Below, in pieces: positions 518 through 24,411 of a stretch of DNA of 64,000 nt. Within the stretch, counting starts at the first letter, position 1. The number at the start of each line of letters is the position of its first letter. A program made the translations under genes and the position numbers. The stretch is from Amphiscolops sp. MND2022 (lineage: Eukaryota), in assembly GCA_964187785.1 (NCBI GenBank), contig OZ076409.1, positions 13,580,001 to 13,644,000 on the forward strand, read 5' to 3'. Below the pieces are notes generated by a model. It saw nothing but the letters and a program-made list of their open reading frames with translations, ran no database searches and was not told where the DNA came from.

Positions 518-3500
518 TTACTGGGTGGCGGAGGAGTGACGCGCTCTGGGGGAAACGTCTGCCTTTGGTTGCAGTTCGGACAGAGATCCTCTTCGCGTAT
601 TTCCTCCTCGCAGGACTGGCTTTGGTTCGGTGCTGGCAGTTTCATGGGTCCTGGGAGCCGTGTTTGAGCCACTGGGGCCATTCTCTGCGGCTACAGGAGT
701 TGAGGCGTCTGGCGAATGTTCTTGCGCTGCATTGGCTGAGCCGCTAACATTGGCAGAACTTGTGATTGACGTGGAGATTGGGATCTGCACATCCAATCTA
801 CTGGCATTAAACAGGTGCGGTAGATCCAGCGGTCTATTGCGGGTGGCAATGGGTCGTTTCTGTTTCGCACTGAGTTTCGGGCGTAGATCAGGTCGGCCCC
901 AGAGCCCGCAGGCTCTGGACCAGTTGTCCCTGTTTGCATGTTCTATGATTTGCCTGGAGGCTTCCCATTCGGGTCCGAGGGGATCACTTAGCAATTCCAT
1001 GACGTGGTAGCAAGTCTCCGCTGGCATGTCGCTTCCCATAGTAACCCTCGCCTCTGGATTCCAAACAGGCATTGTCAGTGGGGGGATGATCAAACCTTTT
1101 AGGCGCCCTTGGCGTTCCTCCAGGGTCCTTGACATCCACACGCCTAGTTTGTAGTGATCGCGATAGGCATACTGCTCATCGAAGCCCTTCTCGACCATAC
1201 TGATTGGCTTAGCCCGGATATAACCGATGGGTCCTCGCCAGTACCTGGCTGGAAGCTTGATCATTTGAAAATTGTACTCCTGATTCGTGTGGCCGCCCAT
1301 GGTTTGCACACATTCGGTCACGTACTTCCTGAGGTGTGCGAAACTCCAATTGAATCGCTGTGGTATTCCAAGGTGATCTAGGGGCGAATTGTACCAATTC
1401 ACCGGGCCGTATTCGCGAGGTAAAGGGCACGCCTTCTTTGTTCGGGCTTTGAGAATACCGGCCAGGTTTTCGTCTTGCTGCGTTTCATTCTTTATGGTGG
1501 TATACATGCGGGGTACTAGCAGAAACAGCCCACGTTCAAGCATCTGTTGATAGTTGTGCGGTTTCACGTTCTTCAGATAAGTCAGGATGGATACCGTTAG
1601 CGTTTCCGAGGCCAGTCGCAGAGGCTTGGTGGGATAGCGGAGTATCCCGGTTGGGCCAAATATCGGAGTTAGCACGGGTGCTAACACCCGTACAAGATCT
1701 TCGACTTCAGCCAAAGTGAAATCTGCCAGCTGGTTAGGTGTCAAAAATCCAGCTACCTCGGTCACTAGCTGACGTCCGTCATATAGTGGTTGGTGCTTAT
1801 CCACCCCCACGAAAAGTCCCGAGGCAAAGACCAGACTGCAATATATCCAATGATATAATGAAGTTGTCATACGCTCCAGGTGAGCGGGATAATCCTGAGC
1901 GTCTTTCCGTTGTAACAGCTTGGCTAACGCGGTGAGGCCTGAGATGTTCCCTCGTGCAATCACTAAGTATGAAAATAGCCATTCCAGATTACACTCGGTA
2001 ACCAGGTCGGTCAATATCATCATTGGGCCAGCTACAAAGCGTTTCTGCCCGAAAGTGAGCATCAGTGCAAAGAGTTCGTTCACTTGCATGGTACCGATAA
2101 TCTCGCTGATTTCGATCAACCAACTCTCGTCTAAATCGAACTCGACTCGAACAACATCGGGACTCCAACCCAATCCCAAACAGATGGCAAACTGGTCGGT
2201 TGACATCCCAAGCTCTTTTGCAATGTCTGCTACAGTGGTAGTTTGTAGCCGCTGGTACCAGGCGTCGTAGGTGCTGCTGAAGGCTTGGATTTCAGCCTGA
2301 GTTTCGCTTGTCAGTTTTGCAGCAATGTACTTCATTCCCACTGATAATTGATCGATTGTGAGGTCCTTGGTAAATTGAACTCGCGGGATGGCTCGTTCTA
2401 CTTCTCGGTCGCTGGGGACTTTGCTCATTGTGGCAGTGACTTCTGCAAGATCGGTTTTGATACAAGTCTTTCCACCGGAGGAGCGCGCGCGCTCTATCCA
2501 GTTATTCAGGCGGATTGCCTCGCATTCAGCCGTACTGGGCTCTGGGACTCGCCTTTCTCCGTCCTTGTTGAATACTAACAAGCCCATGCGAGTGCCGTGA
2601 TCAAAGTAGATGGCATCGTCGATGGTCAGCTGCGCGTTCCCTGTCTTTTCCACTGACTGTAGCACTTTAGACACTGAGGCAATATACCCCATGTAGGACA
2701 GCCAGGAGGGACGAAAGTCGTTGGAGCTAATCCGCATATTGGGCGCGCAGATCGCAAAGTCTATTTCTCTACACTTGCAAACTTCTGTCACCATGTAGAT
2801 AAATCTCTGCAAGGCGGGGGGCCATTGGCAAAAACCTGGGGGTGTCACGAACAGGGCTGGCACCTTGAGTTTATCCTTCAAGATGTTTTGGGCTTTTTCC
2901 ATCGCTCGGGCCATGTTCAATGCTGCATTGCGTACCGTTGTTCGCTGAGCTGGACTTGGATTCATAATCTCAACGTTCGCGATCTGGGCCATTAGTCCTT
3001 CACAGGCCATGTGATCGAAAACGTTGCTGATAATCACTCTGCGTGGGGGTGGCTCTTTGAAGGTTCCTGTCATCTCAGGGTCAAACATGGTGACCAACAC
3101 TTCGGCCATCTCGGGAATACGTGACAGCGGTAGAGTAAAAACCATCACGTCTGACAGCACGTTGTCAATGGGGACGTTCTTGAGGAATGTTGAGTCAATA
3201 AGTAAGGCGAAGCGCGCACGCTGCAACCTTTCTTTTGGCATTGGTAGCTGGGCTTCGAGGTCACCGGCGTACCGTGGGTTGATCTCAAAGGTCTCTCCAG
3301 CGTTGAGGAAATATCGATCAGCGAATTGCCCACGAAGGTCAATGTTGAGGGCGTCCAGGTAATTGTCTTCCACGTTTGGCAGCATATTCATTGCCTTCCC
3401 TAGCCATGGCGGCTCATTGGTAGGGGTGTGGTCGGGGCGGATTGGACGATTCATGAATACAGGTACATTCGCCTTCTTCAACTTCGCATGCTCTTCGTCA

Positions 3501-4885
3501 TTCGGAGGACACATGTTTTTCTCAAATAGCCATTCGGGCGATACTATAACTGCCGATTCCCAGATACGTCGGGAGTCCTTGGTGACCAATGTGCCCTTTG
3601 TGTTTTGCATGGGACTCAGATACGTCGGCTGTTTCGTAAAGGTCCTCTTAGTTGGGTGTTGAATCGCCTGTTTGCGGAGTGGGGTTCCAGTTGGACCACT
3701 GTTGGTTACCTTCAATCCTGGGTAGTCACCCATTATGTCCTTGACAGTTCGTTGGGATTCAGGGGTGCCTTGATAACCCACAGTTTGCTCCGTTTGTGGC
3801 TGTCTTGATGTGGACGGCTTGGGAGTCGCTCGTTGAGCCAGCGACTCGCGTGTCGTAGACTGCGTGGATGGTGGTTGCGGCAGTCCTTGTTGTTCGCCTG
3901 TTACGTCCGGTTGTGATTGGGGTGAGGGAAGCACGCATGCTTCCGACACTTTTGACTTCGTTTGGTCTGGCGCTTTGGAGGTTGTGGCCTTCTCGTTGGA
4001 AATCTTTTTGTCGGGTGGTGGCTTGCTCGAGGGGCTGTCACGGGCAGTCAATGGTTGTTGAGTCTTCTTTGTTGGAGAAGGGTCGTTGCGCTTTCTTGAG
4101 GCAGGGCGGCTCTCTCCTCCCCCTTTTTGAGAAGAGCGGGAAGGCGAACGACTGCGCTCCACAGTCACGGTGCGAGAGTGTCCTGGTTGCTCAGACTGAG
4201 GATTGATGTGGGGAATAGTGATGACACCTTGATGTGTATCAGTTGGAGTCACATTGTCGTTGCGAATAGTGACAGTGGGCAGAGCAATTCGACGTAGTTC
4301 AGGCCAACACTGCTCCATGGATCGCATGAAATCATCGTAATTGGGGTTGGCAGCCACTGCTTGCAGCGCTGAGATGACTGCTTGCTCCGCCATAGATTGA
4401 TTGGGCGAGCCAGGCACTATAGGAGCAGGAGTGCGCGCACGCACTACTGCTTGTGGTGTTGGTGCAGGAGGTGGCGGTGGAGGTGGAGGCGGGCAAGAAG
4501 GGATCTGTAAAGGTCTAGTCTGATGGACTCCGCCATTCGCAGGACTATATGAGATCGCCGCACGATCATCCGTGAAGTGATGCGTGAGATCATGGCCGTG
4601 CCACACTCCATCTTGGTACGTCATGGATCGTTGGAATCCAGGAAGCCCTGAAGTAATTGATATCGTCAGCATTGGGGCTTGCAATTGTGATTCCATTTGA
4701 GCGGTGATTGCTGCTACCCCGGCAACTGTAGCTGGCGACAGACCTTGGTCGAGTCTGTCTCGAATAAAGGCAATTTGTGGGGTACGTTGGACACGCGCAG
4801 TGTCGTAGACGCGTTGCCCCAAGGCAGGAGAGTTATCTGTAGACCTTGGCGGGACGTTGTTGCTTCTATCATTATCTTGGTTCAT
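518..4885 (-). CDS. Retrotransposon accessory ORF2 (1455 aa) with SGNH/GDSL-esterase-like domain; function unknown
   Basis: Uninterrupted ATG-started ORF downstream of pol; colinear homolog in element B (e.g. GHDLTH/GYDLTH, FVTPPG/FMSPPG, APNMRIS/APNLRIS, LRYPT). Confidence 0.88.
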   Translation of the reverse strand: MNQDNDRSNNVPPRSTDNSPALGQRVYDTARVQRTPQIAFIRDRLDQGLSPATVAGVAAITAQMESQLQAPMLTISITSGLPGFQRSMTYQDGVWHGHDLTHHFTDDRAAISYSPANGGVHQTRPLQIPSCPPPPPPPPPAPTPQAVVRARTPAPIVPGSPNQSMAEQAVISALQAVAANPNYDDFMRSMEQCWPELRRIALPTVTIRNDNVTPTDTHQGVITIPHINPQSEQPGHSRTVTVERSRSPSRSSQKGGGESRPASRKRNDPSPTKKTQQPLTARDSPSSKPPPDKKISNEKATTSKAPDQTKSKVSEACVLPSPQSQPDVTGEQQGLPQPPSTQSTTRESLAQRATPKPSTSRQPQTEQTVGYQGTPESQRTVKDIMGDYPGLKVTNSGPTGTPLRKQAIQHPTKRTFTKQPTYLSPMQNTKGTLVTKDSRRIWESAVIVSPEWLFEKNMCPPNDEEHAKLKKANVPVFMNRPIRPDHTPTNEPPWLGKAMNMLPNVEDNYLDALNIDLRGQFADRYFLNAGETFEINPRYAGDLEAQLPMPKERLQRARFALLIDSTFLKNVPIDNVLSDVMVFTLPLSRIPEMAEVLVTMFDPEMTGTFKEPPPRRVIISNVFDHMACEGLMAQIANVEIMNPSPAQRTTVRNAALNMARAMEKAQNILKDKLKVPALFVTPPGFCQWPPALQRFIYMVTEVCKCREIDFAICAPNMRISSNDFRPSWLSYMGYIASVSKVLQSVEKTGNAQLTIDDAIYFDHGTRMGLLVFNKDGERRVPEPSTAECEAIRLNNWIERARSSGGKTCIKTDLAEVTATMSKVPSDREVERAIPRVQFTKDLTIDQLSVGMKYIAAKLTSETQAEIQAFSSTYDAWYQRLQTTTVADIAKELGMSTDQFAICLGLGWSPDVVRVEFDLDESWLIEISEIIGTMQVNELFALMLTFGQKRFVAGPMMILTDLVTECNLEWLFSYLVIARGNISGLTALAKLLQRKDAQDYPAHLERMTTSLYHWIYCSLVFASGLFVGVDKHQPLYDGRQLVTEVAGFLTPNQLADFTLAEVEDLVRVLAPVLTPIFGPTGILRYPTKPLRLASETLTVSILTYLKNVKPHNYQQMLERGLFLLVPRMYTTIKNETQQDENLAGILKARTKKACPLPREYGPVNWYNSPLDHLGIPQRFNWSFAHLRKYVTECVQTMGGHTNQEYNFQMIKLPARYWRGPIGYIRAKPISMVEKGFDEQYAYRDHYKLGVWMSRTLEERQGRLKGLIIPPLTMPVWNPEARVTMGSDMPAETCYHVMELLSDPLGPEWEASRQIIEHANRDNWSRACGLWGRPDLRPKLSAKQKRPIATRNRPLDLPHLFNASRLDVQIPISTSITSSANVSGSANAAQEHSPDASTPVAAENGPSGSNTAPRTHETASTEPKPVLRGGNTRRGSLSELQPKADVSPRARHSSATQ

Positions 4886-4895
4886 GACGACAATT

Positions 4896-4912
4896 CTGAA
4901 AGAGTGCAGGTC
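4896..4912 (-). promoter_or_regulatory. Putative 3' splice acceptor for ORF2 subgenomic mRNA (element A)
   Basis: Minus strand GACCTGCACTCTTTCAG|AATTGTC, 10 nt before the ORF2 ATG; similar motif at the same position in element B. Confidence 0.5.
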
Positions 4913-5110
4913 GATTGTAGCACACTTGATAGTAGGGCAACACCATAGGTCATTTCAAGGGTAATACCAGGGAAAGTAATAGAATGTCATACACTAACAT
5001 TAAAGAAAAAGGTAACGTAACAGTTTCACATAAACTCCGTGTCGACTCACTAAACTTAATCGAGCGGATAAAAAACAAAAAAAACAAAAAAAAGCGGAAA
5101 AACGAGAGCT

Positions 5111-8100
5111 TTATGGAAAGCTAGCGACGCTTGCAATAGATACGTAAACGCGATCGTGAAGAACGACGGTCAGGGGGGTGTCGGCGAATACGTCCATCAA
5201 ACAGGTATAAAAATCAAAAAGATTACGTATTGGGCGTTCAGGATCAATGATGGCAAAGTGTACTTCTATCGCCTCCAAGCGCTCGAGTAACATTTTTAAG
5301 TGATCAAGACATCCAAAGAGAATATCAGCGAGCATAGGGCAGCGAGGTGTAGCTCGTGTGATCAAAAGGTGGATAGTTTGAGGATGGCCGTCTATCAAAG
5401 ATGTGGGTAGCGTTACAATATTGCCAACCTCTGGTCGAAGTTGAAAAATTGCATCTGCACCATGCTCACGAATGACGTAACGAAGGGCGGCAGAACTAGT
5501 TTCCAGATTTGCGGGACAACATAAAACGATATGATGGGGAGTCTGCAGGAAGTCCGTATTGGCATACTGCACATAGTCAACCAATTGAGGTCTCACGGCT
5601 CCGTGGTACACTAACTCTCGTCCGGGATCTTTGGAGAGAGCATCATCACATGCATTCAGGAGGAGGCCCTTGATTGCGCCCAAATCTTGCCATACGGATC
5701 GCGGCAATGATTGATTATCAATATTAGCCCTGGACCATGTATCCAGTGCGTGTAGGGCCGATTGGAGCGATACAGGACTAGGAAATGAGTGTGTCCATTC
5801 GTCCAGGATTCTGATTCGTGAAAAATTCGATAAAACTGCTATGATAAGTTCCAGCCACCATTCAAACTTAATTTTACCACGATATAGGTCTATGGTGTGG
5901 AAACAAGTGATTCTATCAGGAGAGGCCATCGTCCGCAAGCTCTCCAGACAGGTGTTCAAGTTAGTGGGATGAACCAGGTCGGATGCTTGTTTGGCCGTAA
6001 TTAGTAGCCACCAGTTGCTTGTAGGCTGATAAACGTCTCCTGGTTTTGCGGTGACGTTGTATTTGTCGTACAAGAGGTCAGCAGGAATACAGCGTATCAT
6101 TTGGATAGGCTCTCGCTCATAGTTGAAAGGGCCAAAAGCAATATTTGTAGGCAAAGGGGGAACAGTGATGGGCAAGGTGAACTCCAAACCAACAAGATCA
6201 TAGGTCCACTCCTTGAACCTTGGGCACGGAGCCTTCGCTATCGTAGAATCTTTCATTTTGGATAGGATATAGTCCACGGGATATGGAGTGTCACTGCGTT
6301 GTAGCCCAGTATAGGTTTTCTCTGCTCGAATAACCAAACGGTCAACCATTCCGCTCGGAAGCGATTTCTCCTGTTCACGTGCTAGCAGGATTCCCTGGGA
6401 ATTGATTGGGAAGCCCGCGTGGACCATATAGTTACATTCGCAGTTTCGTAGGCCACATGTTCCGCAACGATATCTGGGAGTACGATTGCGTCGCAGTCCA
6501 TAACGAGCGTTGGTCGATTCTGGCGGTGCTGCTTGATCTGAGGTTACCGCCGCGCTAGGGGCAGAAGAGTCAGTGTCCATGGATGGAGTGTTACGGACAC
6601 GGGTAGGAGTGTTAGGTCTGGCGTGCGTTATACGAGGAGGTCTTCCTCTGGGACGCCCTCTTTTGCGAGCGCCTCTAATAGCACCTCTCCGTTGGTGACC
6701 ACGTGGCAGCGAGGCTCGCGGCCTCGCTCTACCTGGCGGACGTCCCCGGGGTCCACGCCCTCTAGGAGCATTGGGGAGTTTCGTGGTAGTAGCTGCATCG
6801 TTGTTGGTGGGAACTGTTGCAGGGGGAATTGATCCCTTTTCGTTATTGGTTGTTGGTGTTTCAGCACCGTTGTCGTCTAGGGTTGGGTTGAGAACATTGT
6901 CATCGATTAGGGGCCAAATGGGAAAGTTACTCAACATATCCGTAAGAGATGGATTTGTCAATAATGGGGCGGATGTACCGGTCAAAGAGGTGGCGGCACT
7001 TTTGGTGGGTACGTGGATAGTAGGATTCGGGGCGATGTCCAATGCGTCGGGTACTGCTTCATTCTCTGAGAACAGAGCCTCCATTGCAGGTAGTGGTGAT
7101 ATTGGCATTTCGGGAATAGGCGCAGGCTCTTCTACTTGTGATGACAAGATAACACTTTCGTCAGGACTAGCCTGAACACTCGATAGGAGTACATCAGAAC
7201 GTTCATCGTCAGACTCTGTCGAAGAGTAGCCAAATTGTTGATAATGCAGGCGGCTGCCACCCGCGCGCATGTGTGTGCGTAACCGTGTGTCCATCCAATG
7301 TCTTTGTCGAGAAGGCAAAGAGGCATTGCTGGCTTCCGAAATTGGTTCCTCTGCACGGTAAGAAGGTTGTGAAGCATCGTCTCTCACCTCCTCATGGGAT
7401 TGTTCTGGATCAGGGTCCATGATAATAGCAACCTCGCCGTTATGCGCAGGAACAGTTGCCCATTCTGTTGGACCACCATGATGCGGTTTCAATCGTTCGA
7501 AATGCACTTTCTGACCAGTGTCCAGTATGTAGACACGTCCCTCTTGTAGCACTCGTGCTACCTTGTGAGGACCACGCCACGCTCTCATCAATTTAGGGGA
7601 TCCCTTTTGAGGAATGTATCGGCAGAATACCCAAACAGGTTCGCCCACTTCGTAGGCTTTAGCACGAATTGCTCTGTCGTACTTCAATTTTTGTCGTTGC
7701 TGGGCTTGATGCGTGTTGCGACGGACCAAGTCATGAATCTCTTGTTGTCGAGCCAGCACATGTTCCACATAGGCTTCGTGTGATTCGAATGACTGAGTTG
7801 CAAATTCTGGATACAAGAAAGTCAGGGGTATAGCTTTTTCCATGCCTCTGGTCAGCATGTACGGGGAGAATCCAGTAGTGGCATGACGTGTGGAGTTATA
7901 TGCACCCATGACTTCATCTAGGTACTGATCCCAGTCACGCATTCGTCTAGAGCAGAATACACGCAGTAGGGTGAGTAGCGTTCGGTTTTGTCGCTCTACC
8001 AACCCTTGAGTCCTGGGGTGGCCAGCAGTTGAGGTTACTTTGGTCACTTGGGCTGCTTTCATAAACTCAGCAGATACTGCCGCGGTGAAATTGGGAGCAT

Positions 8101-11100
8101 TGTCTGACTGCATCCTCGTCGGTGTTCCATGGCGGGCAAACCACTTCTGCAACAACAACTTTGAAGTGGTCGCTGCATCATACTCATCGTGGTTACACGG
8201 CACAGCTTCTGCGAGCTTAGAGAAATGATCGATAATAACCAATATCCCTGTGTTACCATCATCAGAGGGACAAATTTTCATGTGGTCATATTGGACTAGC
8301 TCGTTGAAATAACCGCTTTGGATATTTTTCAAGTGAAAGCGTACATCACCAGGCTTGTCGCGTACTTGTTGACAGGTGATACATTGGCTGACGTATTGTC
8401 CAATGGTGCGGCGAATGCCTGGCCAAGTGTGGCGCTCTTGAATTCTGGCCAAGACTTTCGCGATGCCTTGATGTCCCATCGCGTCGTGAGCCTTGAATAG
8501 TATCTCATGCTGATACAATTGTGGCATCACAATCATGCAGGGGCGTTCATGCAAAGCTCTTTGAGTTTTGGAGTATTTTACACACAAAATTCCGTTGGCG
8601 TTTATCAGTAGAAGGTTCTTCTTCTGTTTGTAGTAGTTTTTGGCAAAGGTGCGTACATTTTCCGGAAAGACGTCATTATCTATTGATTCTTGCTCTACCA
8701 ATTTCTTGATAGCCAATATATGGACGTCACGGTTTTGTGCTAATAGTAGATCCTTCAGTCCATGGACTGTGTTAGCATGTTCATGCAGTTCCATTGATAT
8801 GCTGTTTACCACAAACGCGGCTTGTTTTACGTGCTCTGGTGCAGTGCTAGTTGCTTGCTTTTCCGTCAGTGGGTAAGTGGTTCTTGATGGTACGTTAGCA
8901 GCATGCGTGGGGAGTAAATAGTCTCGTTGATATTCCTCGGTCAGTTCCAACCAATCCTCAGGATATTCTGGATAAAGTTCGGCAGGCAGTGTCAATTCTG
9001 GTTTTGGCAATGTAGGTAGGGGCGCTCTCATGGCTTTGTCTCGTATGGTCGCATTTCGTTTGCTTCCTCCGCTCTTTCGCGTGGGAGCGGTAATTGTGGT
9101 CTCGGGTGAACTTTGGCTACCCAACCTCTGCAAGTGTGCAGGCAATTCTGGGTGATTTGGTATCACACGTCCGTGGACATCGAACCATGGGGCGAGCGGG
9201 AGTTTGTTATATTCCTCCTGTGACAGGAAATCCCATTTGTCTGCAATTGCGGGTAAACCCTTTAGTTGCTTTTCGTGTTTTTTGTAATCATTTGTTCGTT
9301 TGCTAAGACCGTCGGCATTTCGGTGTTGGGTTCTGGGTCGATGCTCAATGCTGAAGTGATATTTTTCAAGAGCCATAATCCATCGACCGATAATCGCCTG
9401 ATCCATCGAATATGTTTTTAGCCAGGATAGGGCCTGATTATCTACCCTCAGTGTGAACTTTCGTGGACAGAGATAACTGTGGTTTTTCAAGATGAAATAG
9501 TACGCAGCATACATTTCCAATTTTGGGGCTCCATACTTTGCTTGCGTAGCAGTTAATTTTTTGCTTCCGAATACAATTGGTCGCAATTTGCGGCTCTCAG
9601 GTGGTCCTTGCCATTGGTGCAGAATACCCGATATAGCTACACCACTAGCATCTGTGTCGAGAACAAATTCGCCTTCAGTGTCGGGTTGCGCCAGAGCAGT
9701 GGCTTCCATTAGTGCCACTTTGATGCTGTTGAAGGCTCGTTGCTGCTCCTCCCCCCATAAAAATGAAGAGGCTCCTCCTGTTATCGCGTGTAAAGGGGCA
9801 ACTAGTTTTGCATGCCACGGGATAAAATCTCGATAGTAGTTGGCAAAACCCAAGAAACTTTGCAATTCAGTCTTGGTTCGCGGGATATCCCATTCTTTCA
9901 GCTTGGTGACAGCTTTTGGATCTGGCTTGATACCATCTGCGGATACGACCCGGCCCAAATATTTGATCTCCGATTTCATGAAGTCACACTTGGAGACTCT
10001 CATTTTGAACCCGGCCTCACGCAGGCATTGGAATACTTCGCGTAGTCTATCCATGTGATCCTCGATGGTCTCGGTAGCAATCACAATGTCATCGATGTAG
10101 GCCATAACCATACTTCCTTCACGGTTCACTATTCTTTGTAGCGCTCGCGCTATTGCCCGTTGAAATGTTGCTGATGCGTTACACATACCAAAAGGCATAC
10201 GCCGCCACTCGAATAACCCAAGTTCACAAGCGAAGGCAGTCTTTTGACGATCGGCTTTTCGGACAGGAATTTGCCAGAACGCCCACGCCAAGTCAATACT
10301 GGTATAGATTTTGGCTTTGCCCAATCTGGATAGACTTTCATCGATACGTGGCAAGGGATAAGCGTCTTTGATGGTCACTTCATTAAGTGGCCGAAAATCA
10401 CAACAGAATCGCAATTCACCACTCTTCTTTTTGACCATAACAATTCCACTCGCCCAAGGGGATAAGGAAGGTTGTATCATTCCCAAAGCTAGCAAGTCAC
10501 GAACTTCTTGGTTAGCACGTTCTGCCTTGTCAGGCGACATTCGTCTTGCACCTTCGCGGTGGGGTACAGCCCCTGGCTCTAGTTCCACCGGGTGCTTAGC
10601 GATTTTACACTTACCAATGTCGGCCTTGAACTTCATAAACAAATCATCAAATTCGTTCAAAAGTTTACTAAGCGTGTCGCTGGCGGTCGATCCCCACAAA
10701 CCGCGCACTTCGTCGAGTTGTGCTTCCGGGCCCGGTATCGGAGCCATTAACGCCGGATCGGTTCGTTTTTTTACTTCGCGCTCGGACAAGCCTAGTTCTG
10801 ACGGTTCGGTAGAGGACAAAAACTCAAATTCAGATGAAGAACTATATTCAGAAGAAGAATCAAGATTCATCTGTTCGTAAATTTTACAAACATAATTTGC
10901 ATTTGACTGCTGAGTTTCACTTGATTGTCCGGGGACAATTTGGGGAATGGCTTTATGAACCATCGTTACGGGTACCGCGGTTCCTAAAAGGGTGCCCTTT
11001 TTAATCCGCTGCACGTTGCTGGTAAGATTTCCTAAACTGACGTAAAGGAAGCCAGTCTCCCCCACGGTCGCCACGGTGTCCTCTAAAAAGATGGCGTTTT

Positions 11101-14100
11101 TTAACATTCGGTTAGGTGTTTGAAAATTGATTAGCACGGTCCGAAATATGAAAGGTTCTAAGTTGTCTACAAGCAATTTAGCGCGTAGTATTGCGCGTTC
11201 AAAAGGTTGCAACACTACGTCCTGTGCAATCGCTACCGACGAATTGAGTGATTCGTTACTTACTTGTGTGTGGGCATGGTACCACACTGGTTCAGACGGA
11301 GCTCGGACAATGACCTTCATCGCGGTTAAATCCACCAAGACTTGATAAGCTCGTAGGAAGTTTCTGCCCAGGAGGAAGTCTTCCACTCCCATGGCATCAT
11401 CGACTACCACGAAGTTAGTTTCCAATTCGTAGCCTCCCAGTTGGAATTTGACTTTCTCCGCTAGACCAAAAGTCTTGATCGTTTTCCCATTCGCGGCATA
11501 TAGGTCAATACCATAAGGTCGTAGGAGTGTCCCAGTGCGCACAGCGACTCGATTGTAGGCTGAGAAGGTGAGGATGGACACTCCTGATCCAGTGTCTATC
11601 AGACCACGTAACGGCACGGGAGCAGCATCGGGAACCACGAATGATACTACGAGCGACGCACGCTCATCGATTCTCGCTTCACCAGTTGGTTCTTGAGCAT
11701 CAATGTTATAGCAGCGCAGCTCCTGCGGTCCCAAGCAGATTCCAGGAGGAAACGCGTCAGTAATGATAGTGGCACCAAAACGCATGTCAACACCATCTAT
11801 GCAAGCTTTGACTGGAATCGGAGAATAGGCATGATACGTCGAAGTGACACCTTTTACCTGCCATTCTTCCGGTTGGGGCAGGGTCAATTGTCGGCAATTC
11901 TCGTTTGCGGTTATCTCGTCTATCAGGGCGTCTATGGTGAGTTCTGGGCGGGTTTCTCTCTCAATCGCCAATAGCAATCGGACAGACATGATAGTGCGTC
12001 CCGAGGGATCAAAAGTAGTTGGCTCCGGGTTCGTTTGGATTTGGATTTTGCCACATGTGACGGTAAGGGGCGTCGTCATGTGAGCGGCTTCAGCAGGGCG
12101 AAGCATGAGTACCATTTCGCTGTCACTCATTGTTTGAGAAGCAGGTGGCTGTTCAGCCCAGAGGCTGTAGGCCAAATCCTCATGTACCGGAACATTTTGG
12201 CATTGTGATGCAGAGTGTTCAGTCATGCCACAATTTACACAGAATACGGGGCCAGAACATGCAGAGGCCACATTATTCTCGCATAAGTTTACTCGTTCTT
12301 CGGGTGCAGCGCGAGCCGCTGGTTTCCTTGCTAGGTCTCGACTTGGGCATTCCCTTGCAAAGTGACCTGGTAGTCCACAGTTGAAGCATGCTCCTTGGGG
12401 AATCACTCTCGCTGGTTGCTGTTGCGCAGGAGCCTGTTTTACCGATGCAGGGCCTGGTGGAGCCATTTGGGGTTTAGCCTCTCGTTGTCCTTGGTTAGGA
12501 GGTAGTACGTTTTGCGGTATGCCTGGTGCTGGATGAACCAATTTTCCTGGCACGAAAGGGTGAGGCCTCGATCTCATTGCATACCTTGGGTCGTAGGGTT
12601 TTGATGTGTTTGGGCGATGCCGTTGCAATTGTCTCGTGGTGAACCTTAGGGATTCTACAGTTGGTGGTTCGGTCAGATATGCCTCTGCGGCGTACACCAC
12701 GGCTAACTCTTGTCGCAGCGTCGGGTCATTGATGCCATCTATAAAACGTTGCAGGATCTCATAACGACGCGTAGTGATAGGCTCGTCTGGGAAACCTTGG
12801 GTGCGCAGACCTTCCAATGCGTCTAAGAATTGCATCCAATCCTCTTTTTCCTGTTGGACACGAGACATGAAGGTTTGCCTGACGTGCATGCGATTTCCAC
12901 CGGTTCCAAATCTGCTGGCCAAGAGAGAGAATACCTTCTCGGGCTCGTCTCGTTCAGGTTCAGATTTGTTGATTATATAATTTCTTGCCTCTCCTTCCAG
13001 GTGATCGATGATAGCCCAGGCTCTGTCGATCTTTGGGGATTTTGTATGTACCCTTTCTAGAAATCGCTTCATCACTGGGAGCCATCCATCGACAGAACCA
13101 TCTTTTGTACCTTTGTATACCGTAGGGCGCACCCTAGTTTGATCTCGATTAGCAATCAGCGGCGCTAGTTCCTTGGACATGGCTTTGGATATTGCCTCGG
13201 TAAACCTAAGTTGCTCCGGTGATATTGGCGCTTCTTCACTGATAGCTGGTGGCGGGATACTGCTGCCTCGCGTTGAGTTGACAGAGTCATCGGTGTTCTC
13301 GGGGAGAGTCACTTCTCGGCGTCGAGTGCTGCTGGCGCATGGGTTGCCCGGGGGTAATTCGTCGTTCGCGGTTTGGAATTCTGCAGCTGATTCTCCCAAA
13401 GTTGCATTTGCTGTTTGGAAGGTGCTGGTGACTTCAGTTAGCACGTTTGTGCGTGTGGGCTCTCGCAGGTCGCTGATACCCATGCTTGAAGTGTCGATAG
13501 TTATCATCTCGCATGTTGGTTCTTTCTTGTGAGTTTTGGTCGTGGGTGGAATATTTTTTGTTGATACCGCGGATGGGATAAATTTCGTCGACGTTGACGC
13601 AGCTTCTCCATTTGAGACCAGAGTTTGTGGCAAGGGCGCGTACCTGGCCAAGTGTTGTTTAGAGCCAGATGGGTTTGTTGAAATCGTCACACTCTCTTTT
13701 GGCTTGAGGGAAACGCTTTTCATGGGTTTTGGCAATGATATATCAGTGTCTCGCAGCAACTCTTTGATGGTGTTGCTTACTGGTGCGGGTTGAGGTTGGA
13801 TATTCTTCAACATAGTGCCCATTGCTTGTATCTGTGAACATACCTCTTGCAGTTGAGCTTCCATACGTACCTCTCTTTCGGTCACCATATCCTTTATTTC
13901 GGCCATTCGATAACCCATGGCATCCATTCGGGCGGCCTGGATTTCATGTCCTTGCGCTTGTCGCTCAGTCGATGTTCGCAGTTCAGTTTGTACGGCTTCT
14001 ATCTCCTCCATTATTGACTGATGCTCTCTATCGCACCTTGCTTTACGCTCAGACAGTTGTGAAGCAGCTTGCTTCACGCCTATCTGGGCATCTAATAGAG

Positions 14101-14878
14101 CTTTGCGTGCTTTCGCTGCTTCATGTACGGCTCGATATGCTGAAGATCGGGCAGATGCAGCTTTTGATGAAGGTGAGGATGAGCGCGAGTCGCCATGAGG
14201 TCCTGTAGTGCCGGTCTGTGCTAGTAAGGCTGGAGGCCGTACTTGCTTACCCTTCCCAGATGCTCGGGGGGCCGTAGCTTCTTGAAGACGTGCCTTTGCA
14301 TAGTTCATACCCCCGACATAAGACATTTGTTGCAATATCTCTGCCGTGTTCGCAGTGCTCTCGCTGGCCACGCTGGGAGCTTTGAGTTGTCCAGTGGCAT
14401 TCAGGCAACTCATTTCAGCTTCTTCCTCAGCGTTTGTTCTGTTGGAGTTGGGCCAGGTTCCTGCTTCGTCAGTACCGAAAGGTGTGACGGCTACTTTGGT
14501 GAGTTCTTGTAACCATTTGGACGTATGCGCCTGACTTCCTGTTTCGTCTGCTGAACCTCCGATATCATCGGTAGTCTTGGCGATCGGCTTAGTCTGATAC
14601 TCCTCCGATGCGTCGTCTGACATAGGGTCTGAAAAATCGGGTTCCATAACGAAACTGTCATCAGTTGGCCAATCTTCCTCCCTGGGGTCTGAGGTCAGGT
14701 CTGATATCGCACTGAGATTTGTCTCGCACCCCGTTGGGTCTGGTGTCTTTGATGCTTCAGTGCATCGCGAGGTGTCCTTCCTCCCCCCTTTTGAATGATT
14801 AGAGCGTCGCTGGGTGTTCGCGCGGCCTAATGTTCTCGTTATAGAAATCCAAAGGTTACGCAAACTGTTGGGTTTCAT
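5111..14878 (-). CDS. Gag-Pol polyprotein (~3255 aa from first ATG; open frame extends to 15031)
   Basis: CCHC knuckles CFNCGLPGHFAREC and CVNCGMTEHSASQC; protease LIDTGS and DFLLGRNFL; RT LRFCCDFR, MPFG, YIDD; RNase H LDTDAS...NADGLS; integrase HHCC, D-D(35)E, WRGPHKV. Confidence 0.95.
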   Translation of the reverse strand: MKPNSLRNLWISITRTLGRANTQRRSNHSKGGRKDTSRCTEASKTPDPTGCETNLSAISDLTSDPREEDWPTDDSFVMEPDFSDPMSDDASEEYQTKPIAKTTDDIGGSADETGSQAHTSKWLQELTKVAVTPFGTDEAGTWPNSNRTNAEEEAEMSCLNATGQLKAPSVASESTANTAEILQQMSYVGGMNYAKARLQEATAPRASGKGKQVRPPALLAQTGTTGPHGDSRSSSPSSKAASARSSAYRAVHEAAKARKALLDAQIGVKQAASQLSERKARCDREHQSIMEEIEAVQTELRTSTERQAQGHEIQAARMDAMGYRMAEIKDMVTEREVRMEAQLQEVCSQIQAMGTMLKNIQPQPAPVSNTIKELLRDTDISLPKPMKSVSLKPKESVTISTNPSGSKQHLARYAPLPQTLVSNGEAASTSTKFIPSAVSTKNIPPTTKTHKKEPTCEMITIDTSSMGISDLREPTRTNVLTEVTSTFQTANATLGESAAEFQTANDELPPGNPCASSTRRREVTLPENTDDSVNSTRGSSIPPPAISEEAPISPEQLRFTEAISKAMSKELAPLIANRDQTRVRPTVYKGTKDGSVDGWLPVMKRFLERVHTKSPKIDRAWAIIDHLEGEARNYIINKSEPERDEPEKVFSLLASRFGTGGNRMHVRQTFMSRVQQEKEDWMQFLDALEGLRTQGFPDEPITTRRYEILQRFIDGINDPTLRQELAVVYAAEAYLTEPPTVESLRFTTRQLQRHRPNTSKPYDPRYAMRSRPHPFVPGKLVHPAPGIPQNVLPPNQGQREAKPQMAPPGPASVKQAPAQQQPARVIPQGACFNCGLPGHFARECPSRDLARKPAARAAPEERVNLCENNVASACSGPVFCVNCGMTEHSASQCQNVPVHEDLAYSLWAEQPPASQTMSDSEMVLMLRPAEAAHMTTPLTVTCGKIQIQTNPEPTTFDPSGRTIMSVRLLLAIERETRPELTIDALIDEITANENCRQLTLPQPEEWQVKGVTSTYHAYSPIPVKACIDGVDMRFGATIITDAFPPGICLGPQELRCYNIDAQEPTGEARIDERASLVVSFVVPDAAPVPLRGLIDTGSGVSILTFSAYNRVAVRTGTLLRPYGIDLYAANGKTIKTFGLAEKVKFQLGGYELETNFVVVDDAMGVEDFLLGRNFLRAYQVLVDLTAMKVIVRAPSEPVWYHAHTQVSNESLNSSVAIAQDVVLQPFERAILRAKLLVDNLEPFIFRTVLINFQTPNRMLKNAIFLEDTVATVGETGFLYVSLGNLTSNVQRIKKGTLLGTAVPVTMVHKAIPQIVPGQSSETQQSNANYVCKIYEQMNLDSSSEYSSSSEFEFLSSTEPSELGLSEREVKKRTDPALMAPIPGPEAQLDEVRGLWGSTASDTLSKLLNEFDDLFMKFKADIGKCKIAKHPVELEPGAVPHREGARRMSPDKAERANQEVRDLLALGMIQPSLSPWASGIVMVKKKSGELRFCCDFRPLNEVTIKDAYPLPRIDESLSRLGKAKIYTSIDLAWAFWQIPVRKADRQKTAFACELGLFEWRRMPFGMCNASATFQRAIARALQRIVNREGSMVMAYIDDIVIATETIEDHMDRLREVFQCLREAGFKMRVSKCDFMKSEIKYLGRVVSADGIKPDPKAVTKLKEWDIPRTKTELQSFLGFANYYRDFIPWHAKLVAPLHAITGGASSFLWGEEQQRAFNSIKVALMEATALAQPDTEGEFVLDTDASGVAISGILHQWQGPPESRKLRPIVFGSKKLTATQAKYGAPKLEMYAAYYFILKNHSYLCPRKFTLRVDNQALSWLKTYSMDQAIIGRWIMALEKYHFSIEHRPRTQHRNADGLSKRTNDYKKHEKQLKGLPAIADKWDFLSQEEYNKLPLAPWFDVHGRVIPNHPELPAHLQRLGSQSSPETTITAPTRKSGGSKRNATIRDKAMRAPLPTLPKPELTLPAELYPEYPEDWLELTEEYQRDYLLPTHAANVPSRTTYPLTEKQATSTAPEHVKQAAFVVNSISMELHEHANTVHGLKDLLLAQNRDVHILAIKKLVEQESIDNDVFPENVRTFAKNYYKQKKNLLLINANGILCVKYSKTQRALHERPCMIVMPQLYQHEILFKAHDAMGHQGIAKVLARIQERHTWPGIRRTIGQYVSQCITCQQVRDKPGDVRFHLKNIQSGYFNELVQYDHMKICPSDDGNTGILVIIDHFSKLAEAVPCNHDEYDAATTSKLLLQKWFARHGTPTRMQSDNAPNFTAAVSAEFMKAAQVTKVTSTAGHPRTQGLVERQNRTLLTLLRVFCSRRMRDWDQYLDEVMGAYNSTRHATTGFSPYMLTRGMEKAIPLTFLYPEFATQSFESHEAYVEHVLARQQEIHDLVRRNTHQAQQRQKLKYDRAIRAKAYEVGEPVWVFCRYIPQKGSPKLMRAWRGPHKVARVLQEGRVYILDTGQKVHFERLKPHHGGPTEWATVPAHNGEVAIIMDPDPEQSHEEVRDDASQPSYRAEEPISEASNASLPSRQRHWMDTRLRTHMRAGGSRLHYQQFGYSSTESDDERSDVLLSSVQASPDESVILSSQVEEPAPIPEMPISPLPAMEALFSENEAVPDALDIAPNPTIHVPTKSAATSLTGTSAPLLTNPSLTDMLSNFPIWPLIDDNVLNPTLDDNGAETPTTNNEKGSIPPATVPTNNDAATTTKLPNAPRGRGPRGRPPGRARPRASLPRGHQRRGAIRGARKRGRPRGRPPRITHARPNTPTRVRNTPSMDTDSSAPSAAVTSDQAAPPESTNARYGLRRNRTPRYRCGTCGLRNCECNYMVHAGFPINSQGILLAREQEKSLPSGMVDRLVIRAEKTYTGLQRSDTPYPVDYILSKMKDSTIAKAPCPRFKEWTYDLVGLEFTLPITVPPLPTNIAFGPFNYEREPIQMIRCIPADLLYDKYNVTAKPGDVYQPTSNWWLLITAKQASDLVHPTNLNTCLESLRTMASPDRITCFHTIDLYRGKIKFEWWLELIIAVLSNFSRIRILDEWTHSFPSPVSLQSALHALDTWSRANIDNQSLPRSVWQDLGAIKGLLLNACDDALSKDPGRELVYHGAVRPQLVDYVQYANTDFLQTPHHIVLCCPANLETSSAALRYVIREHGADAIFQLRPEVGNIVTLPTSLIDGHPQTIHLLITRATPRCPMLADILFGCLDHLKMLLERLEAIEVHFAIIDPERPIRNLFDFYTCLMDVFADTPLTVVLHDRVYVSIASVASFP

Positions 14879-17232
14879 GACTTCGCACGTCTCGAAAAGG
14901 TCAAAAATCGATCTAGGGGTCGTACCGGCGTGAAACTTACACAGCGCGCTGATACCGTGGTGTGGGGCCGGAAATCGTGCGTTTGGGGCTTGCGGAACGG
15001 CTGATTCGCAAACAATTGAGTTTTTAGACAATTTTTGAGTTTTTCAGATTTCTTTACAAATGACTAAGATGCCTCGAACGCAACGTGTAATCGTCGGAAA
15101 CACTTAAAAATTGTCCACCTGACCTCGTGGTAGGTGTACTACACGCTAGCAGAATTAAATCTAAGCTAAGGTTTTTATTTCAAGATTCAGGCTGATCCGG
15201 ACGTTCGGTACCCTTAGTCATCAAGATACGTCAATTTTCATGCTTATTTCAAGATTATTCTCCATTGAAAAAAGCTAGCGGGCTCAAAATTTGCAAAACA
15301 AGGTATTATCTGGTACAAATGATAGAAATGAATTGCAATTCAACCTCGTTTTTCAATTAAGGTACTCGGATCACTCAGGAAAAATTTGAAAAATTACCCT
15401 CTATGCCCAATTTTTTGAGTGGTACGTTTTTTCCATTTTCTCATCAAGTACCGGTTGGATTGACACGAAACTTTGTGGTTACAGCCGATGAATGTGTACA
15501 ATGCCGGTGAAACCATCAAAAGAAAGCGCGGACGCTAATTTGAGGTTTCGACCTTACTTGGACAACACTCATAAAGAAGAACAATTTTGGACTACTTTCT
15601 TCACAAATTGGCTAAGAGGGTCACCTCAAAAAGCGGTAGGGCTGAAAAAATGGGATCTAGGTGTTGCCCCACTACTCGTAACACTAGGATAAACCCTCGA
15701 TTAGATGTGCCCGTTAAGTATGAGGCACCGACAGTCCTTCAGTTTTGGATTATTTCGGTAGTTTTACAGTCCTCTAAAGTGGAAACGTTAAAGAACTTTT
15801 CTCGATTTCGGTGAAAGTTACGTCCACCAAATTTTTGGCACTAGCGTTATTTTTAGTGGTGGTTATGAAAGTGCAACCACCTTTTGGCTAAGGTTCAAGA
15901 ATCTATGACCCGACCTTAACTCAGAGACAGTCCGGATTTTAGGAAAATGGAGGTTTTTCAGTGCATTCTTCTACTTTTCTCAGCACTGAAAGGAAATTTT
16001 GGGATGCGGTCTTCACTATAGATCGTTAAATTTACTGAATAAACTGAAAATGATAGCCCGGGGGCTATTCCAAGCGTAGAAGTGTTCGTCAATAGTCAAG
16101 TTGGGTTTCTTCTAAGAGTACTATAGAAAAACCTTAAAATCACAGTTTTCGTAACTTTTTTCAGGAAGTAATGGTTATGATTATCAAAATGGGTATTGTT
16201 GGGTACCGGCAGGTGCACCCCAACCTAATTGCAACCATACGGGGGTGTTTAAAAGCTTCCATACAGATTCCCCCACAAGTTCAAAGTGCTAAAATGTTCA
16301 GTTTTTCAAAAACGGGTTTTTTTTCCTCACAAAACTTATACTAAGTGCCTTTTCGGGCAACTTTGAGTACTTCGTCACGTTTTTTGCGAACTCGTTAGAG
16401 TCCTGAGCTACTTTTATTTAATTTCTGCAGGTGTGTGGCTAGCACCAAGAGCGCTCGCGCTCATGTAGGTGTTTCGCCTCAAAATGGCCAAATTTGGCAC
16501 TTTTCGCCGAAAATACATGAGAAAACGCACTTTTTTCGCACAAAATAGGTGCAAAAGCACACACTTAGTTGCAGAAGGCTCGTAAAAACATTGGCAAATG
16601 GTCGTACACAAAATTTTGAGCAACCCAAAAAATTTTTTCAACCTGACTCAAAAATATCATACAACCCGGACTGACGAGTCGTGTCTTCTCGTTCTTTTTG
16701 CTCATCACCCAGAACAGCTAGAGACGAATGGGTTGCACCATTAGACACGTCAGCGTTTGTAGTACGTCTCCACCAAATTTCATTTCTCTAGGTTGCCTGT
16801 ACGGGAAATGGGATCGGTGAGTCGTGTAACTCGTTTCGGCAGATTGTAAGATTCCTCTGAGCAAGGATCATCCTCTTCTCAACACTCACTTCATTGGTCA
16901 TAAAAAGCTGAAAAAGGCTAGAAAACACCTGTTAACACTTCTAGCAGCCTCCCAGCGACTTGCTAGACCAATTTTATGAGTGACCCGTTAAGAGGGTAGG
17001 CTATTTCGATCGTTACCTGTCAACTACAAAAAATATGAAAATCACAACATACAACGCTTCTTTACAAGATTTACCTTTATCCACCGGGGTTGAAGTCTTC
17101 AATGACACACACAGGGTAAAAATATTGAAAAACTCTGCTTCTCTCTTCTTTCCATCAGAGTCGGGTCGTACTTGGCGTCAATCACCAGAGGGTCGGCTGT
17201 TTTAAAACCATTAAGGGAAGCACTTCGAAGCG

Positions 17233-18900: not shown

Positions 18901-19610
18901 TGTAACGTCCGGCTAGCGGCGCACATCTAGGAAGAGGGACAATGCCTAGGATGCTTAAACAGGAGACCGTTGTCTTACTACATACCTAGACACTAGTTTT
19001 TGATCCCAAAATGGTCTCCATGGGGGACTTTTCTAACGTCTAAGGAGACTCCTCTAATTAGAGCTCCGAGGCGACGTGCCGGCACTCTCAATGTCCGGAC
19101 ACGCCCCACAAGCCTGTAAAAACCAATCCTAAGGTTTTTAGCGCGTTCCTGCTATCTCCTACATACTTCCGAGGTCCAAAAAGGTGTCTATCCGAAAAAT
19201 GTCATTTCGACTGTTATGGGCATGAAATGCCGACCTAGAAGGTCAGGCATGGGAAAAATGACAAAACGCATTAATATAAATCAACAAAATAAAGGGGGAT
19301 AAGCCCCGAGTGGAAATACAGTTACTGTTTGCAGGTTTTCGGGGATCCAGTCATGTAGTTCTAGAATGGCTCTGCTTTCCCAGGGATGACATAGCACCGG
19401 GTAGCGTTCTTCGATTTCTATCCTGTGGATCTTCATGTCGTCAGTCGTCTACTTCTTTTTCACCTCCTGTCGTTCTTCTCGTTCACGTGTTCTCTCTTTC
19501 ATTTTTGTGGGCTTTAAGGACCTGCCAGGTCGGCCATTTTGATTCGCACCTTTTTTGGTTCTTGATCGAATTTTTCATCGAAAATTTGGTGTTGACTGGT
19601 GGACGTTACA
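18901..19610 (-). repeat. 3' LTR of element B
   Basis: 710-bp match to 37295-38004 (3 substitutions seen); 10-bp terminal inverted repeat; abuts the PPT. Confidence 0.97.
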
Positions 19611-19618
19611 TCCTCCCC
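19611..19618 (-). promoter_or_regulatory. Polypurine tract of element B
   Basis: Minus strand GGGGAGGA immediately before the TG of the 3' LTR. Confidence 0.75.
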
Positions 19619-20197
19619 GGGCCGTAGTTTGTCGTCCTCGGCAAACGAGAGGATGCTCGCACCCAAAGGGTACTCTGAGATTCACAGAAAAGGTCTTATA
19701 TCAAAGCTATGTTGATTTCACATTACTATTCTTTTCGCTTTACTACTGCATGTCTAGCACCCTAAAGCCATCGAATTCAAAAAGCACTGATTTTTAGGTT
19801 AAAAACTATACAGTCGGATTTTTTCTTTAAAAAAAGGTTTTTTCACTAATTACTCAGTTCAAGTTAAAATTTCTTTTTCTAAAATTGGGCCCCTGCGCGG
19901 CCAAGTGAGTAACAACAACTTTTGGGTTTGGTAGAAGTTTCAAATTCAAATCAAAACGGGAGGGCACCGAACCGGGACCCACCCAGAGGATGTAACTATA
20001 TTGCATTGTTGCAATGGTAGCAAAGTAAAATATACATCAAACAAAACTCAGGAATTAAGGTTTATTGCACTGAAAGTTTTCAGCACCAGTAAGATGGTGT
20101 AGCACAACTAAAATCAAGAATTGGCATCAGTACATTGATGATAGGGTCCTTTATGCTCAATTGTGTTCTAACAGCCTTGGGGGTCCAGAGGACTCCT

Positions 20198-24292: not shown

Positions 24293-24397
24293 TGGAAACG
24301 ATGATAAAGGAATGTTTAGCACCGAAGATCGTGATGGCAAGACTGATTTGGCGTGATAAGTAGGGGGGCCGCGCAGAGGCGAGGCAACAGGACAAAA

Positions 24398-24411
24398 CTG
24401 AAAAACAGGTC
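24398..24411 (-). promoter_or_regulatory. Putative 3' splice acceptor for ORF2 subgenomic mRNA (element B)
   Basis: Minus strand GACCTGTTTTTCAG|TTTTGTC between the pol stop and ORF2 ATG. Confidence 0.5.

Follow-up and report, generated by a model that had tools for sequence, protein, structure and literature searches.

What does the very large second protein of the giant Ty3/Gypsy elements of Amphiscolops sp. MND2022 do, and does it carry an esterase, a former esterase or something else? We addressed this question in a window of animal DNA (the whole 64,000-nt stretch analyzed here, positions 13,580,001 to 13,644,000 of contig OZ076409.1, assembly GCA_964187785.1), which contains two diverged Ty3/Gypsy long terminal repeat (LTR) elements, A and B, on its minus strand. 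In both elements, a gag-pol frame (open reading frame 1, ORF1) is followed by a second long frame, ORF2. The first-pass annotation of this window had described a degenerate SGNH/GDSL esterase-like domain in ORF2 and suggested that it is a pseudo-enzyme binding lipid or RNA, possibly in the role of an Env substitute. Our results indicate with high confidence that a domain with the predicted SGNH-hydrolase fold is present, but its pocket appears remodeled and conserved rather than decayed, and we tentatively propose that it binds a ligand and localizes the ORF2 protein. The frames and domains concerned are the following, with coordinates given in the window.

518..4954, minus strand: ORF2 of element A, an accessory protein of 1478 amino acids (aa) counted stop to stop; first ATG at 4883-4885 (Met = aa 24)
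2585..3370, minus strand: predicted SGNH-hydrolase-fold domain of A ORF2 (aa ~529-790), including an N-terminal helix that aligns with PAF acetylhydrolase (PAF-AH), as defined with AlphaFold2 and VIA-align
20198..24409, minus strand: ORF2 of element B, 1403 aa
22364..22900, minus strand: core of the predicted SGNH-fold domain of B ORF2 (VDST at 22877-22888, SNVIDH at 22706-22723, SPPG at 22538-22549, SWRP at 22412-22423)

The motif strings on which the initial proposal was built are real and are read from the minus strand: in A they run from nt 3211 (first base of FALLIDS) down to nt 2660 (last base of IASVSKVL), and in B from nt 22900 (IAFFVDS) down to nt 22364 (IAEVSKAL). The intervals given at the time (2657-3220 and 22361-22906) bracket these strings, and the residue range then quoted (aa ~555-745) is numbered from the first Met; in the stop-to-stop frame 518-4954 used here, this Met is aa 24. 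By themselves, such motifs are weak evidence.

We modeled the segment aa 491-840 of A ORF2 with AlphaFold2 on an alignment of 43 sequences. The model presents a mean predicted local distance difference test score (pLDDT) of 83.7 and a predicted template modeling score (pTM) of 0.85, and consists of a beta-alpha-beta arrangement with strands at model residues 92-96, 113-117, 149-153, 210-213 and 241-242 and helices between them. When this model was compared to the PDB with Foldseek, the top rows were GDSL-like lipases (best 1z8h_C; E 3.7e-3; probability 0.99), and the top rows in the viral library BFVD were phage SGNH/GDSL domains (best E 2.4e-3); nothing was found at E ≤ 1e-3 in either collection. 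We then used VIA-align, which is independent of Foldseek, on 48,161 PDB representatives and inspected the 50 best rows. A total of 23 chains reached Z ≥ 8, the best being the brain PAF-AH chain 1bwp_A (Z 10.8; root-mean-square deviation, rmsd, 3.9 Å; 185 aligned residues); as the tool itself notes, a model without a match usually peaks at Z 7-8. In 42 of these 50 best rows, the title refers to an esterase, lipase, acyl-hydrolase, acyltransferase, GDSL, SGNH or OSK protein; the other eight titles are uninformative, and no title suggests a different fold. Re-scoring the Foldseek candidates with VIA-align gave Z 11.0 for PAF-AH entries (rmsd 3.8 Å; 184 aligned residues; alignment spanning model residues 39-279) and Z 9.2-9.7 for TesA, with 69/998 chains at Z ≥ 8. 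The uniformity of the VIA list is a stronger argument than the Z value itself. These results make it very likely, as far as a predicted structure can tell, that this part of ORF2 adopts the SGNH-hydrolase fold, in which blocks I, III and V follow one another as the first-pass annotation proposed. That proposal had looked both to the predicted fold and to a profile match with SGNH families; the fold was recovered and the profile match was not.

We further analyzed the residues of the presumed pocket. The SGNH blocks were mapped onto ORF2 from the order of secondary-structure elements and from a non-significant hhalign alignment, not from superposed coordinates, and this mapping gives the following equivalences in A ORF2.

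3188..3196, minus strand: block I equivalent, Asp587-Ser588-Thr589, directly after the first beta strand (model strand 92-96)
3119..3133, minus strand: block II region, Leu-Pro-Leu-Ser-Arg, after the second strand, as mapped with hhalign
3011..3025, minus strand: block III equivalent, NVFDH (Asn644-x-x-Asp647-His648), after the third strand (strand 149-153; helix 155-161)
2834..2842, minus strand: Pro705-Pro706-Gly707 after the fourth strand, an invariant signature of the family (25/25 each)
2708..2713, minus strand: block V equivalent, Arg748-Pro749, just before a long helix (model 261-278)

In the long members of the family, block I is almost invariant (D 19/20; S 20/20; T 20/20), with Ser conserved in 42/49 homologues of all lengths, and Ser588 maps to the position of the nucleophile. 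The Gly of the GDS motif is replaced by Ile or Val. Block III is likewise conserved in long members (N 23/23; D 23/23; H 22/23; Asn in 60/62 at all lengths) and Asn644 maps to the oxyanion-hole position. Both the Gly and the Asp of the canonical GxND motif are absent; the motif is here N-x-x-D-H, whose Asp-His pair is foreign to the canonical one. Arg748 occupies the position of the catalytic His of DxxHP in 46/59 homologues of all lengths and in 19/21 of the members of at least 800 aa that cover the site, and it is retained in the most distant member (29% identity). In the exceptions, the Arg is replaced by Cys (4), His (3) or Gln (2), mostly in short fragments, and all three His residues (3/59) occur in such fragments. 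The codons of Cys, His and Gln are single-base neighbors of Arg codons. Three residues before the Arg, the position of the triad acid is variable (G17, E9, N8, D7 and others), and neither the His nor the Asp of block V is conserved in this domain. The first-pass annotation was therefore right that the Ser is kept and that the block V His is an Arg in both copies, and this holds across the family. In block II, the canonical Gly corresponds to Leu610, a position occupied by Leu in 52/59 homologues, next to a Pro609 conserved in 53/58 homologues and in 22/22 long members. Some bona fide SGNH members likewise lack the block II Gly (PMC10792757).

These residues are part of a broader pattern of conservation. 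Across 26 members of at least 400 aa, 35/276 columns are at least 94% identical, and these include D587, S588, T589, P609, N644, D647, H648, P705-P706-G707 and A737-P738-N739. Conservation within the domain peaks in the five loops on the canonical active-site face. From Ser to Asn, the spacing is 56 residues in A and 54 in B, and from Asn to Arg it is 104 in A and 101 in B. For three SGNH structures, we computed corresponding spacings of ~52-70 and ~84-95 from published block positions (PMC10792757); the first ORF2 spacing falls within the canonical range and the second is slightly above it. Three observations suggest that the resemblance goes beyond chance: a structure prediction based on a multiple sequence alignment, which is blind to the motifs, yields the SGNH fold; the most conserved columns of the family coincide with SGNH blocks I and III; and the Arg-Pro pair, found in ~90% of long members, coincides with block V.

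Expressed as presence or absence of the S/G/N/D/H residues, the pattern of the ORF2 domain is [+-+--]. In the accessible portion of a survey of 30 SGNH-fold structures, the retention of Ser and Asn with loss of Gly, Asp and His is not among the patterns given, and only OSK, a domain that is not an enzyme, has lost the His base, along with the Ser (PMC10792757). The same survey indicates that relocation of the acid or base within the sequence is known in the superfamily (PMC10792757). Because the Arg is conserved and the position of the acid is not, a classical Ser-His-Asp mechanism is excluded.

Is this domain decaying? We compared A to a second subfamily of the same genome, A', which is 83% identical. 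In the SGNH-fold segment, the proportion of nonsynonymous differences (pN) is 0.081, the second-lowest value among eight ORF2 segments, relative to 0.121 for the whole ORF2. The proportion of synonymous differences (pS) of the segment is 0.776, and synonymous sites are saturated across ORF2 (pS 0.66-0.84). Such a low pN against a saturated pS indicates that the domain is under purifying selection and not degenerate. The word "degenerate" in the first-pass annotation is thus misplaced: the pocket is remodeled but invariant, and strongly selected.

The family is abundant. The ORF2 proteins of A and B share 32% identity over ~755 aligned positions (A aa 491-1226; E 2e-96), as well as a second conserved patch near the N-terminus. 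Using aa 491-1230 of A as query, an exhaustive HMMER search of 1.84 billion representative proteins returned 400 matches at E ≤ 1e-3 (251 at ≤ 1e-10 and 62 at ≤ 1e-30), most of them fragments. A length-restricted search gave 19 long relatives with 29-95% identity, all of them from a single type of source, none of which has a name or a Pfam domain. Within the same genome, at least 116 scored copies of the domain are 98-100% identical (from 3341 first-look candidates), and nearly all of them are located in open frames of ~1,000-1,550 aa; many copies of A' also present long open frames. At least three ORF2 subfamilies with many long-frame copies coexist in this genome, namely A, A' (83%) and a group at ~79-80% identity, and the first-look candidate counts for ORF2 subfamilies are 3341 and 6259. 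These copy numbers indicate a recent burst of 19-kb elements, that is, a young and high-copy lineage with hundreds to thousands of young copies in the 1.07-Gb genome.

The best reading of these results is a selected variant of the SGNH fold with a remodeled pocket, acting as a ligand binder or else as a non-canonical enzyme; in both cases the domain probably binds or processes its ligand in an unusual way. Our preferred account can be stated as follows. The domain would no longer work as a classical Ser-His-Asp esterase, and its Ser/Asn/Arg pocket would instead hold an anionic or ester-type ligand. By analogy with the esterase of the first ORF product (ORF1p) of long interspersed nuclear elements (LINEs), this ligand would probably be a phospholipid or acyl head group, most plausibly of a membrane lipid. 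Holding it may localize the ORF2 protein to membranes, and the other domains of ORF2 could thereby bring the particles or the RNA of the element to membranes. That the region encodes a genuine, very diverged SGNH-hydrolase-fold domain in an ORF2 accessory protein and that this domain has a binding and localizing role is, taken jointly, a tentative proposal; we give the whole chain, from diverged fold through ligand binding to membrane localization, a little less than an even chance.

We next considered the remainder of ORF2, which constitutes most of the protein. Two features of A ORF2 lie downstream of the SGNH-fold domain.

1820..2362, minus strand: confidently predicted all-helical domain of A ORF2 (aa 865-1045; model pLDDT about 90, blocks ~89-98)
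1640..1696, minus strand: hydrophobic segment (aa 1087-1105; aa ~1006-1024 in B ORF2), containing Pro and Gly and conserved in the family

The helical domain is acidic (aa 865-1045; net charge -9). We modeled aa 826-1240 (415 residues) and found no fold match, fusion glycoproteins included (Foldseek best E 0.3; VIA best Z 3.1); the absence of a match is no proof of a new fold, given that the last third of this model is of low confidence. The ESM Atlas gave no usable match for aa 860-1115. The segment aa 1087-1105 is the only membrane-like stretch of ORF2 and contains a P-I-F-G motif, with 19-residue Kyte-Doolittle means of 1.57 in A, 2.18 in B, 2.28 in P0155 and 1.85 in P0171; it may insert into membranes or form a buried helix. 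Upstream of the SGNH-fold domain, aa 151-490 are basic (net charge +12; isoelectric point, pI, 9.7), rich in Pro, Ser, Thr and Gln, and probably disordered. The N-termini of ORF2 are hydrophilic, with no signal-like segment in the four members tested. With no hydrophobic N-terminus in these four members, a single hydrophobic segment and no fold match for aa 826-1240, the best reading of ORF2 is a non-Env accessory protein.

Several results weigh against our account, beginning with the sequence searches and the indirect mapping of the blocks described above. Pfam assigned no family to A and B ORF2 at E ≤ 1, and among seven homologues the sole row was an unrelated ZNF380_CC match (E 0.56) on one of them. 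NCBIfam gave nothing relevant for ORF2 at E ≤ 10. With phmmer, the best PDB match of ORF2 (E 0.2) fell on a proline-rich stretch, and the ORF2 family profile yielded zero matches against all PDB sequences at E ≤ 10. Direct comparison with hhalign was not significant either, whether to five canonical SGNH esterases of the same genome (probability 0.8%; P 0.067) or to 19 bona fide SGNH sequences (probability ~1%; local P 0.063; global P 0.021). The global alignment is co-linear, placing I-D-S on G-D-S, the T-M-P-L loop on the G-x-x-G loop of block II, F-V-S-P-P on the "PP" segment of strand 4 and R-P on H-P, and these non-significant alignments served only as a guide for mapping the motifs. Retroelement esterases do not simply escape the models, since canonical ones are detected in the same 1.07-Gb genome, where Pfam PF13472 gives 39 matches. 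Homology therefore rests on the predicted structure and on the co-linear motifs. Could ORF2 instead contain another three-layer alpha/beta fold, for instance a VWA-like one, that AlphaFold renders SGNH-like, with a coincidental match of motifs? Every sequence and profile test against SGNH families is non-significant, the Foldseek E-values never fall below 1e-3 and the feature search in the ESM Atlas leads only to VWA-type clusters. However, the 50 best VIA rows contain no VWA or other alpha/beta family, the Z values of 10.8-11.0 exceed the background of 7-8, and the invariant columns fall on blocks I and III and the Arg-Pro on block V with the right order and spacing. We rejected the Atlas leads for aa 555-800 (0.80 level), which the structural search did not support with any VWA entry; the tool's note adds that a third of shuffled proteins reach 0.80, and the sequence at this place is D-S-T and not the DxSxS metal ion-dependent adhesion site (MIDAS) motif. 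A chance resemblance of this kind thus appears quite improbable.

A more serious challenge concerns function. The invariance of a nucleophile Ser and an oxyanion Asn is what one expects of an active enzyme, which weakens a role limited to binding and also counts against our account. The domain may be a rewired esterase, lipase or acyltransferase in which Ser588 is the nucleophile and Asn644 contributes the oxyanion hole, with the base supplied by a relocated His648 (with Asp647), where the helix following block III begins, or by Arg748, which would be unusual. Indeed, Ser588 (20/20), Asn644 (23/23), Asp647 (23/23) and His648 (22/23) are conserved down to 29% identity, an invariance more typical of catalysis than of a scaffold, and the domain is under strong purifying selection. 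The superfamily also tolerates a moved acid or base, as in the DHSGN class and in chimeric triads formed by two chains, and only 16/30 representative structures show the strict SGNH pattern (PMC10792757). Nevertheless, in the available part of that survey, no protein described as an enzyme has lost the His base of block V or its positional equivalent, the non-enzyme OSK alone being without it (PMC10792757). In addition, block II has a bulky Leu instead of Gly in 52/59 homologues. We consider an active enzyme somewhat unlikely, but it is the main rival and not much less likely than a binder. A bolder form of this idea is that of a working enzyme with an undescribed catalytic arrangement (Ser nucleophile, Asn oxyanion hole, and Arg748 and/or Asp647-His648 in place of the block V His-Asp) whose substrates would be membrane lipids or surface glycans of the host and which, together with the helical domain and the hydrophobic segment, would allow Env-independent release of particles or cell-to-cell (germ-line) entry; this we regard as unlikely. 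Alternatively, the domain could resemble the OSK domain of insect Oskar, a pseudo-enzyme that would bind RNA on its surface and package or localize the genomic RNA, for example in the germ line. OSK is present among the structural matches (5a4a_A; VIA rank 33; Z 7.7; rmsd 5.3 Å; 161 aligned residues), a basic and probably disordered region precedes the domain, and Gypsy-type accessory proteins can act on genomic RNA, as does CERV of Cer1 (PMC10309623). Yet OSK has lost the whole triad, Ser included (PMC10792757), whereas the ORF2 domain keeps Ser and Asn invariantly; Pfam OSK (PF17182) does not match ORF2 although it scores 2e-7 on a canonical retroelement esterase of the same genome; across 23 members, the domain has a net charge anywhere between -8 and +7 (pI 5.4-9.2), which leaves no conserved basic surface; and oligo(A) is not bound by the related LINE esterase (PMC3905857). 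The similarity to OSK is only that common to the whole SGNH superfamily, and an OSK-like function is improbable. Finally, ORF2 might replace Env as a membrane-active or fusogenic protein whose SGNH domain would target membranes or receptors of the host as the element passes between cells, in the manner of viral receptor-destroying esterases. It lies downstream of pol in the env position, the hydrophobic segment is conserved in the four members tested (4/4; Kyte-Doolittle 1.57-2.28), and retroelement GDSL esterases have been proposed to aid membrane penetration (PMC5408684, PMC6431247). But the lack of Env features described above, including a 415-aa region after the domain that resembles no known fusion glycoprotein, together with the absence of the canonical esterase His, makes this suggestion of the first-pass annotation very improbable.

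How does the ORF2 domain, read as a diverged SGNH-fold ligand binder, compare to known systems? The closest structural neighbors are the catalytic alpha subunits of PAF-AH Ib (1wab, 1bwp, 3dt8; Z 10.8-11.0; rmsd 3.8-3.9 Å; 184-185 residues aligned over model residues 38/39-279), with only 11-12% sequence identity. Bacterial GDSL lipases and TesA score within ~1 Z unit of PAF-AH, so that no specific kinship can be claimed. PAF-AH possesses the canonical Ser-Asp-His triad; in contrast, the ORF2 domain has Arg in place of His and no conserved acid. The OSK domain (5a4a; PF17182) likewise presents an SGNH fold without a canonical triad, but its pattern is [-+---], lacking Ser and His (PMC10792757), relative to [+-+--] in ORF2.

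Among retroelements, the ORF1p esterase of CR1/L2-type elements (ZfL2-1) is another element-borne SGNH-fold domain, and the first-pass comparison to it agrees with the literature (PMC3905857). The ZfL2-1 esterase binds anionic phospholipids and liposomes (PMC3905857), and ORF1p esterases retain all active-site residues and are catalytically active (PMC3905857). They are encoded upstream of pol beside a coiled coil, whereas the ORF2 domain resides inside a 1,400-aa protein downstream of pol. The canonical ORF1p-type esterases of the same genome are recognized by the Pfam GDSL models; the ORF2 domain, which lacks the His and the block II Gly, is not. The GDSL ORF3 of bdelloid LTR elements, also invoked initially, is documented as well (PMC5408684). 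In Vesta ORF3 and the Athena-L GDSL derivatives, an extra GDSL/SGNH ORF is likewise found downstream of pol, without coiled-coil or transmembrane domains. The authors assign these ORFs auxiliary rather than Env roles, and the Athena-L derivatives without catalytic residues offer a precedent for non-canonical versions (PMC5408684). However, Vesta ORF3 keeps its invariant residues and its homology is detectable by sequence (PMC5408684), whereas the ORF2 domain is undetectable by sequence profiles, carries the Ser/Asn/Arg plus Asp-His signature and makes up only ~1/6 of a much larger protein. CERV of Cer1, required for the export of genomic RNA, is a precedent for a non-Env accessory protein (PMC10309623). 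A further statement of the first-pass annotation, that Ngaro elements carry an esterase, was not confirmed in the literature covered; the available part of PMC6673714 names Ngaro and esterase only separately.

The genome itself contains canonical relatives. In another LTR family, the integrase continues in frame, at its C-terminus, into a canonical GDSL esterase (L004:124-2406, L007:1054-2607 and L011:1-1047) with GDS, GTND and DGIHP motifs; several near-identical copies are present. Pfam identified Integrase_p58_C (5.3e-12), Lipase_GDSL_2 (7.1e-12), Lipase_GDSL (1e-11) and OSK (2e-7) in this frame. LTR retroelements of the same host do therefore carry SGNH domains, and this family could be a source lineage of the ORF2 domain; an hhalign comparison of the ORF2 domain to a set including the integrase-fused esterase was non-significant. 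Pol-esterase fusions are not described in the literature on retroelement esterases that we covered. In addition, several families of frames of ~200-315 aa contain a canonical SGNH esterase (L009:527-1468, L024:364-1305, L023:587-1501, L010:603-1460 and L017:637-1245), and most of them present an N-terminal extension of ~90-110 aa, an architecture like that of the ORF1p of CR1/L2-type LINEs. With these LINE ORF1p-like frames, the retroelement-borne SGNH domains of this genome are of at least three kinds.

The elements that carry ORF2 are Ty3/Gypsy elements of the Metaviridae type, with LTRs around ordered gag-pol domains; the LTRs were judged on element B, those of element A not both lying within the window. 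The remaining features of the two elements are listed here.

5111..15043, minus strand: ORF1 of element A, 3310 aa, with gag (zf-CCHC), protease, reverse transcriptase, RNase H and integrase
18901..38009, minus strand: element B, complete, 19.1 kb
18901-19614 and 37295-38009: LTRs of element B, 99.4% identical over a 715-column alignment
24624..34349, minus strand: ORF1 of element B, gag-pol, 3241 aa

In both ORF1s, the order of the Pfam domains is zf-CCHC, aspartic protease, RVT_1, RNase H, Integrase_H2C2 and rve. The 99.4% identity of its LTRs indicates that element B is young. No further sense ORF of at least 120 aa was found between the 5' LTR region and ORF1. Both ORF1s extend for ~900 aa beyond the integrase core (5114-7846 and 24627-27299, minus strand). 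These C-terminal extensions contain a Cys-rich patch and a conserved, globular-looking C-terminal region, and no Pfam family matched them at E ≤ 1 except for a chance-level ADSL_C row. In element A, ORF1 and ORF2 lie in one frame, separated by two stops 51 codons apart (4955-5113, minus strand); this arrangement is probably coincidental, since the two ORFs of element B occupy different frames. Downstream of the elements, a host gene with two long open exons encodes a DEG/ENaC (ASC) channel (57434-60860, plus strand; E 1.8e-60), whose first part holds inserted CUB (6.4e-18) and LDL-receptor class A (9.5e-10) domains. Two repeat clusters, made of short dispersed or tandem units of 174-387 nt that are 74-97% identical, are located between element B and the channel gene (43699-45787) and within the channel gene (55274-63553).

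SGNH domains in retroelements are already known. Indeed, SGNH/GDSL esterases have been captured repeatedly, in the ORF1p of CR1/L2/RTEX, in Penelope-like elements and in the ORF3 of bdelloid LTR elements (PMC3905857, PMC5408684), and the leading idea for their role in retrotransposition is an involvement of lipids or membranes (PMC3905857, PMC5408684). What is new here is a family invisible to profiles, with a conserved Ser/Asn/Arg plus Asp-His signature, in the very large two-domain ORF2 of giant and abundant Gypsy elements. No description of this ORF2 family was found in the full-text literature searched, a body that leaves most subscription journals and the Repbase reports outside its coverage. 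The family constitutes an extreme case in which the pocket is conserved without a classical triad, in highly successful elements, and the canonical esterases of the same genome, both integrase-fused and in LINE ORF1, provide a natural comparison set. An active domain would broaden the catalytic repertoire known for the SGNH fold. If it is a binder, it would represent a second, independent OSK-like exaptation of this fold and would reveal which residues of the pocket are important for ligand binding.

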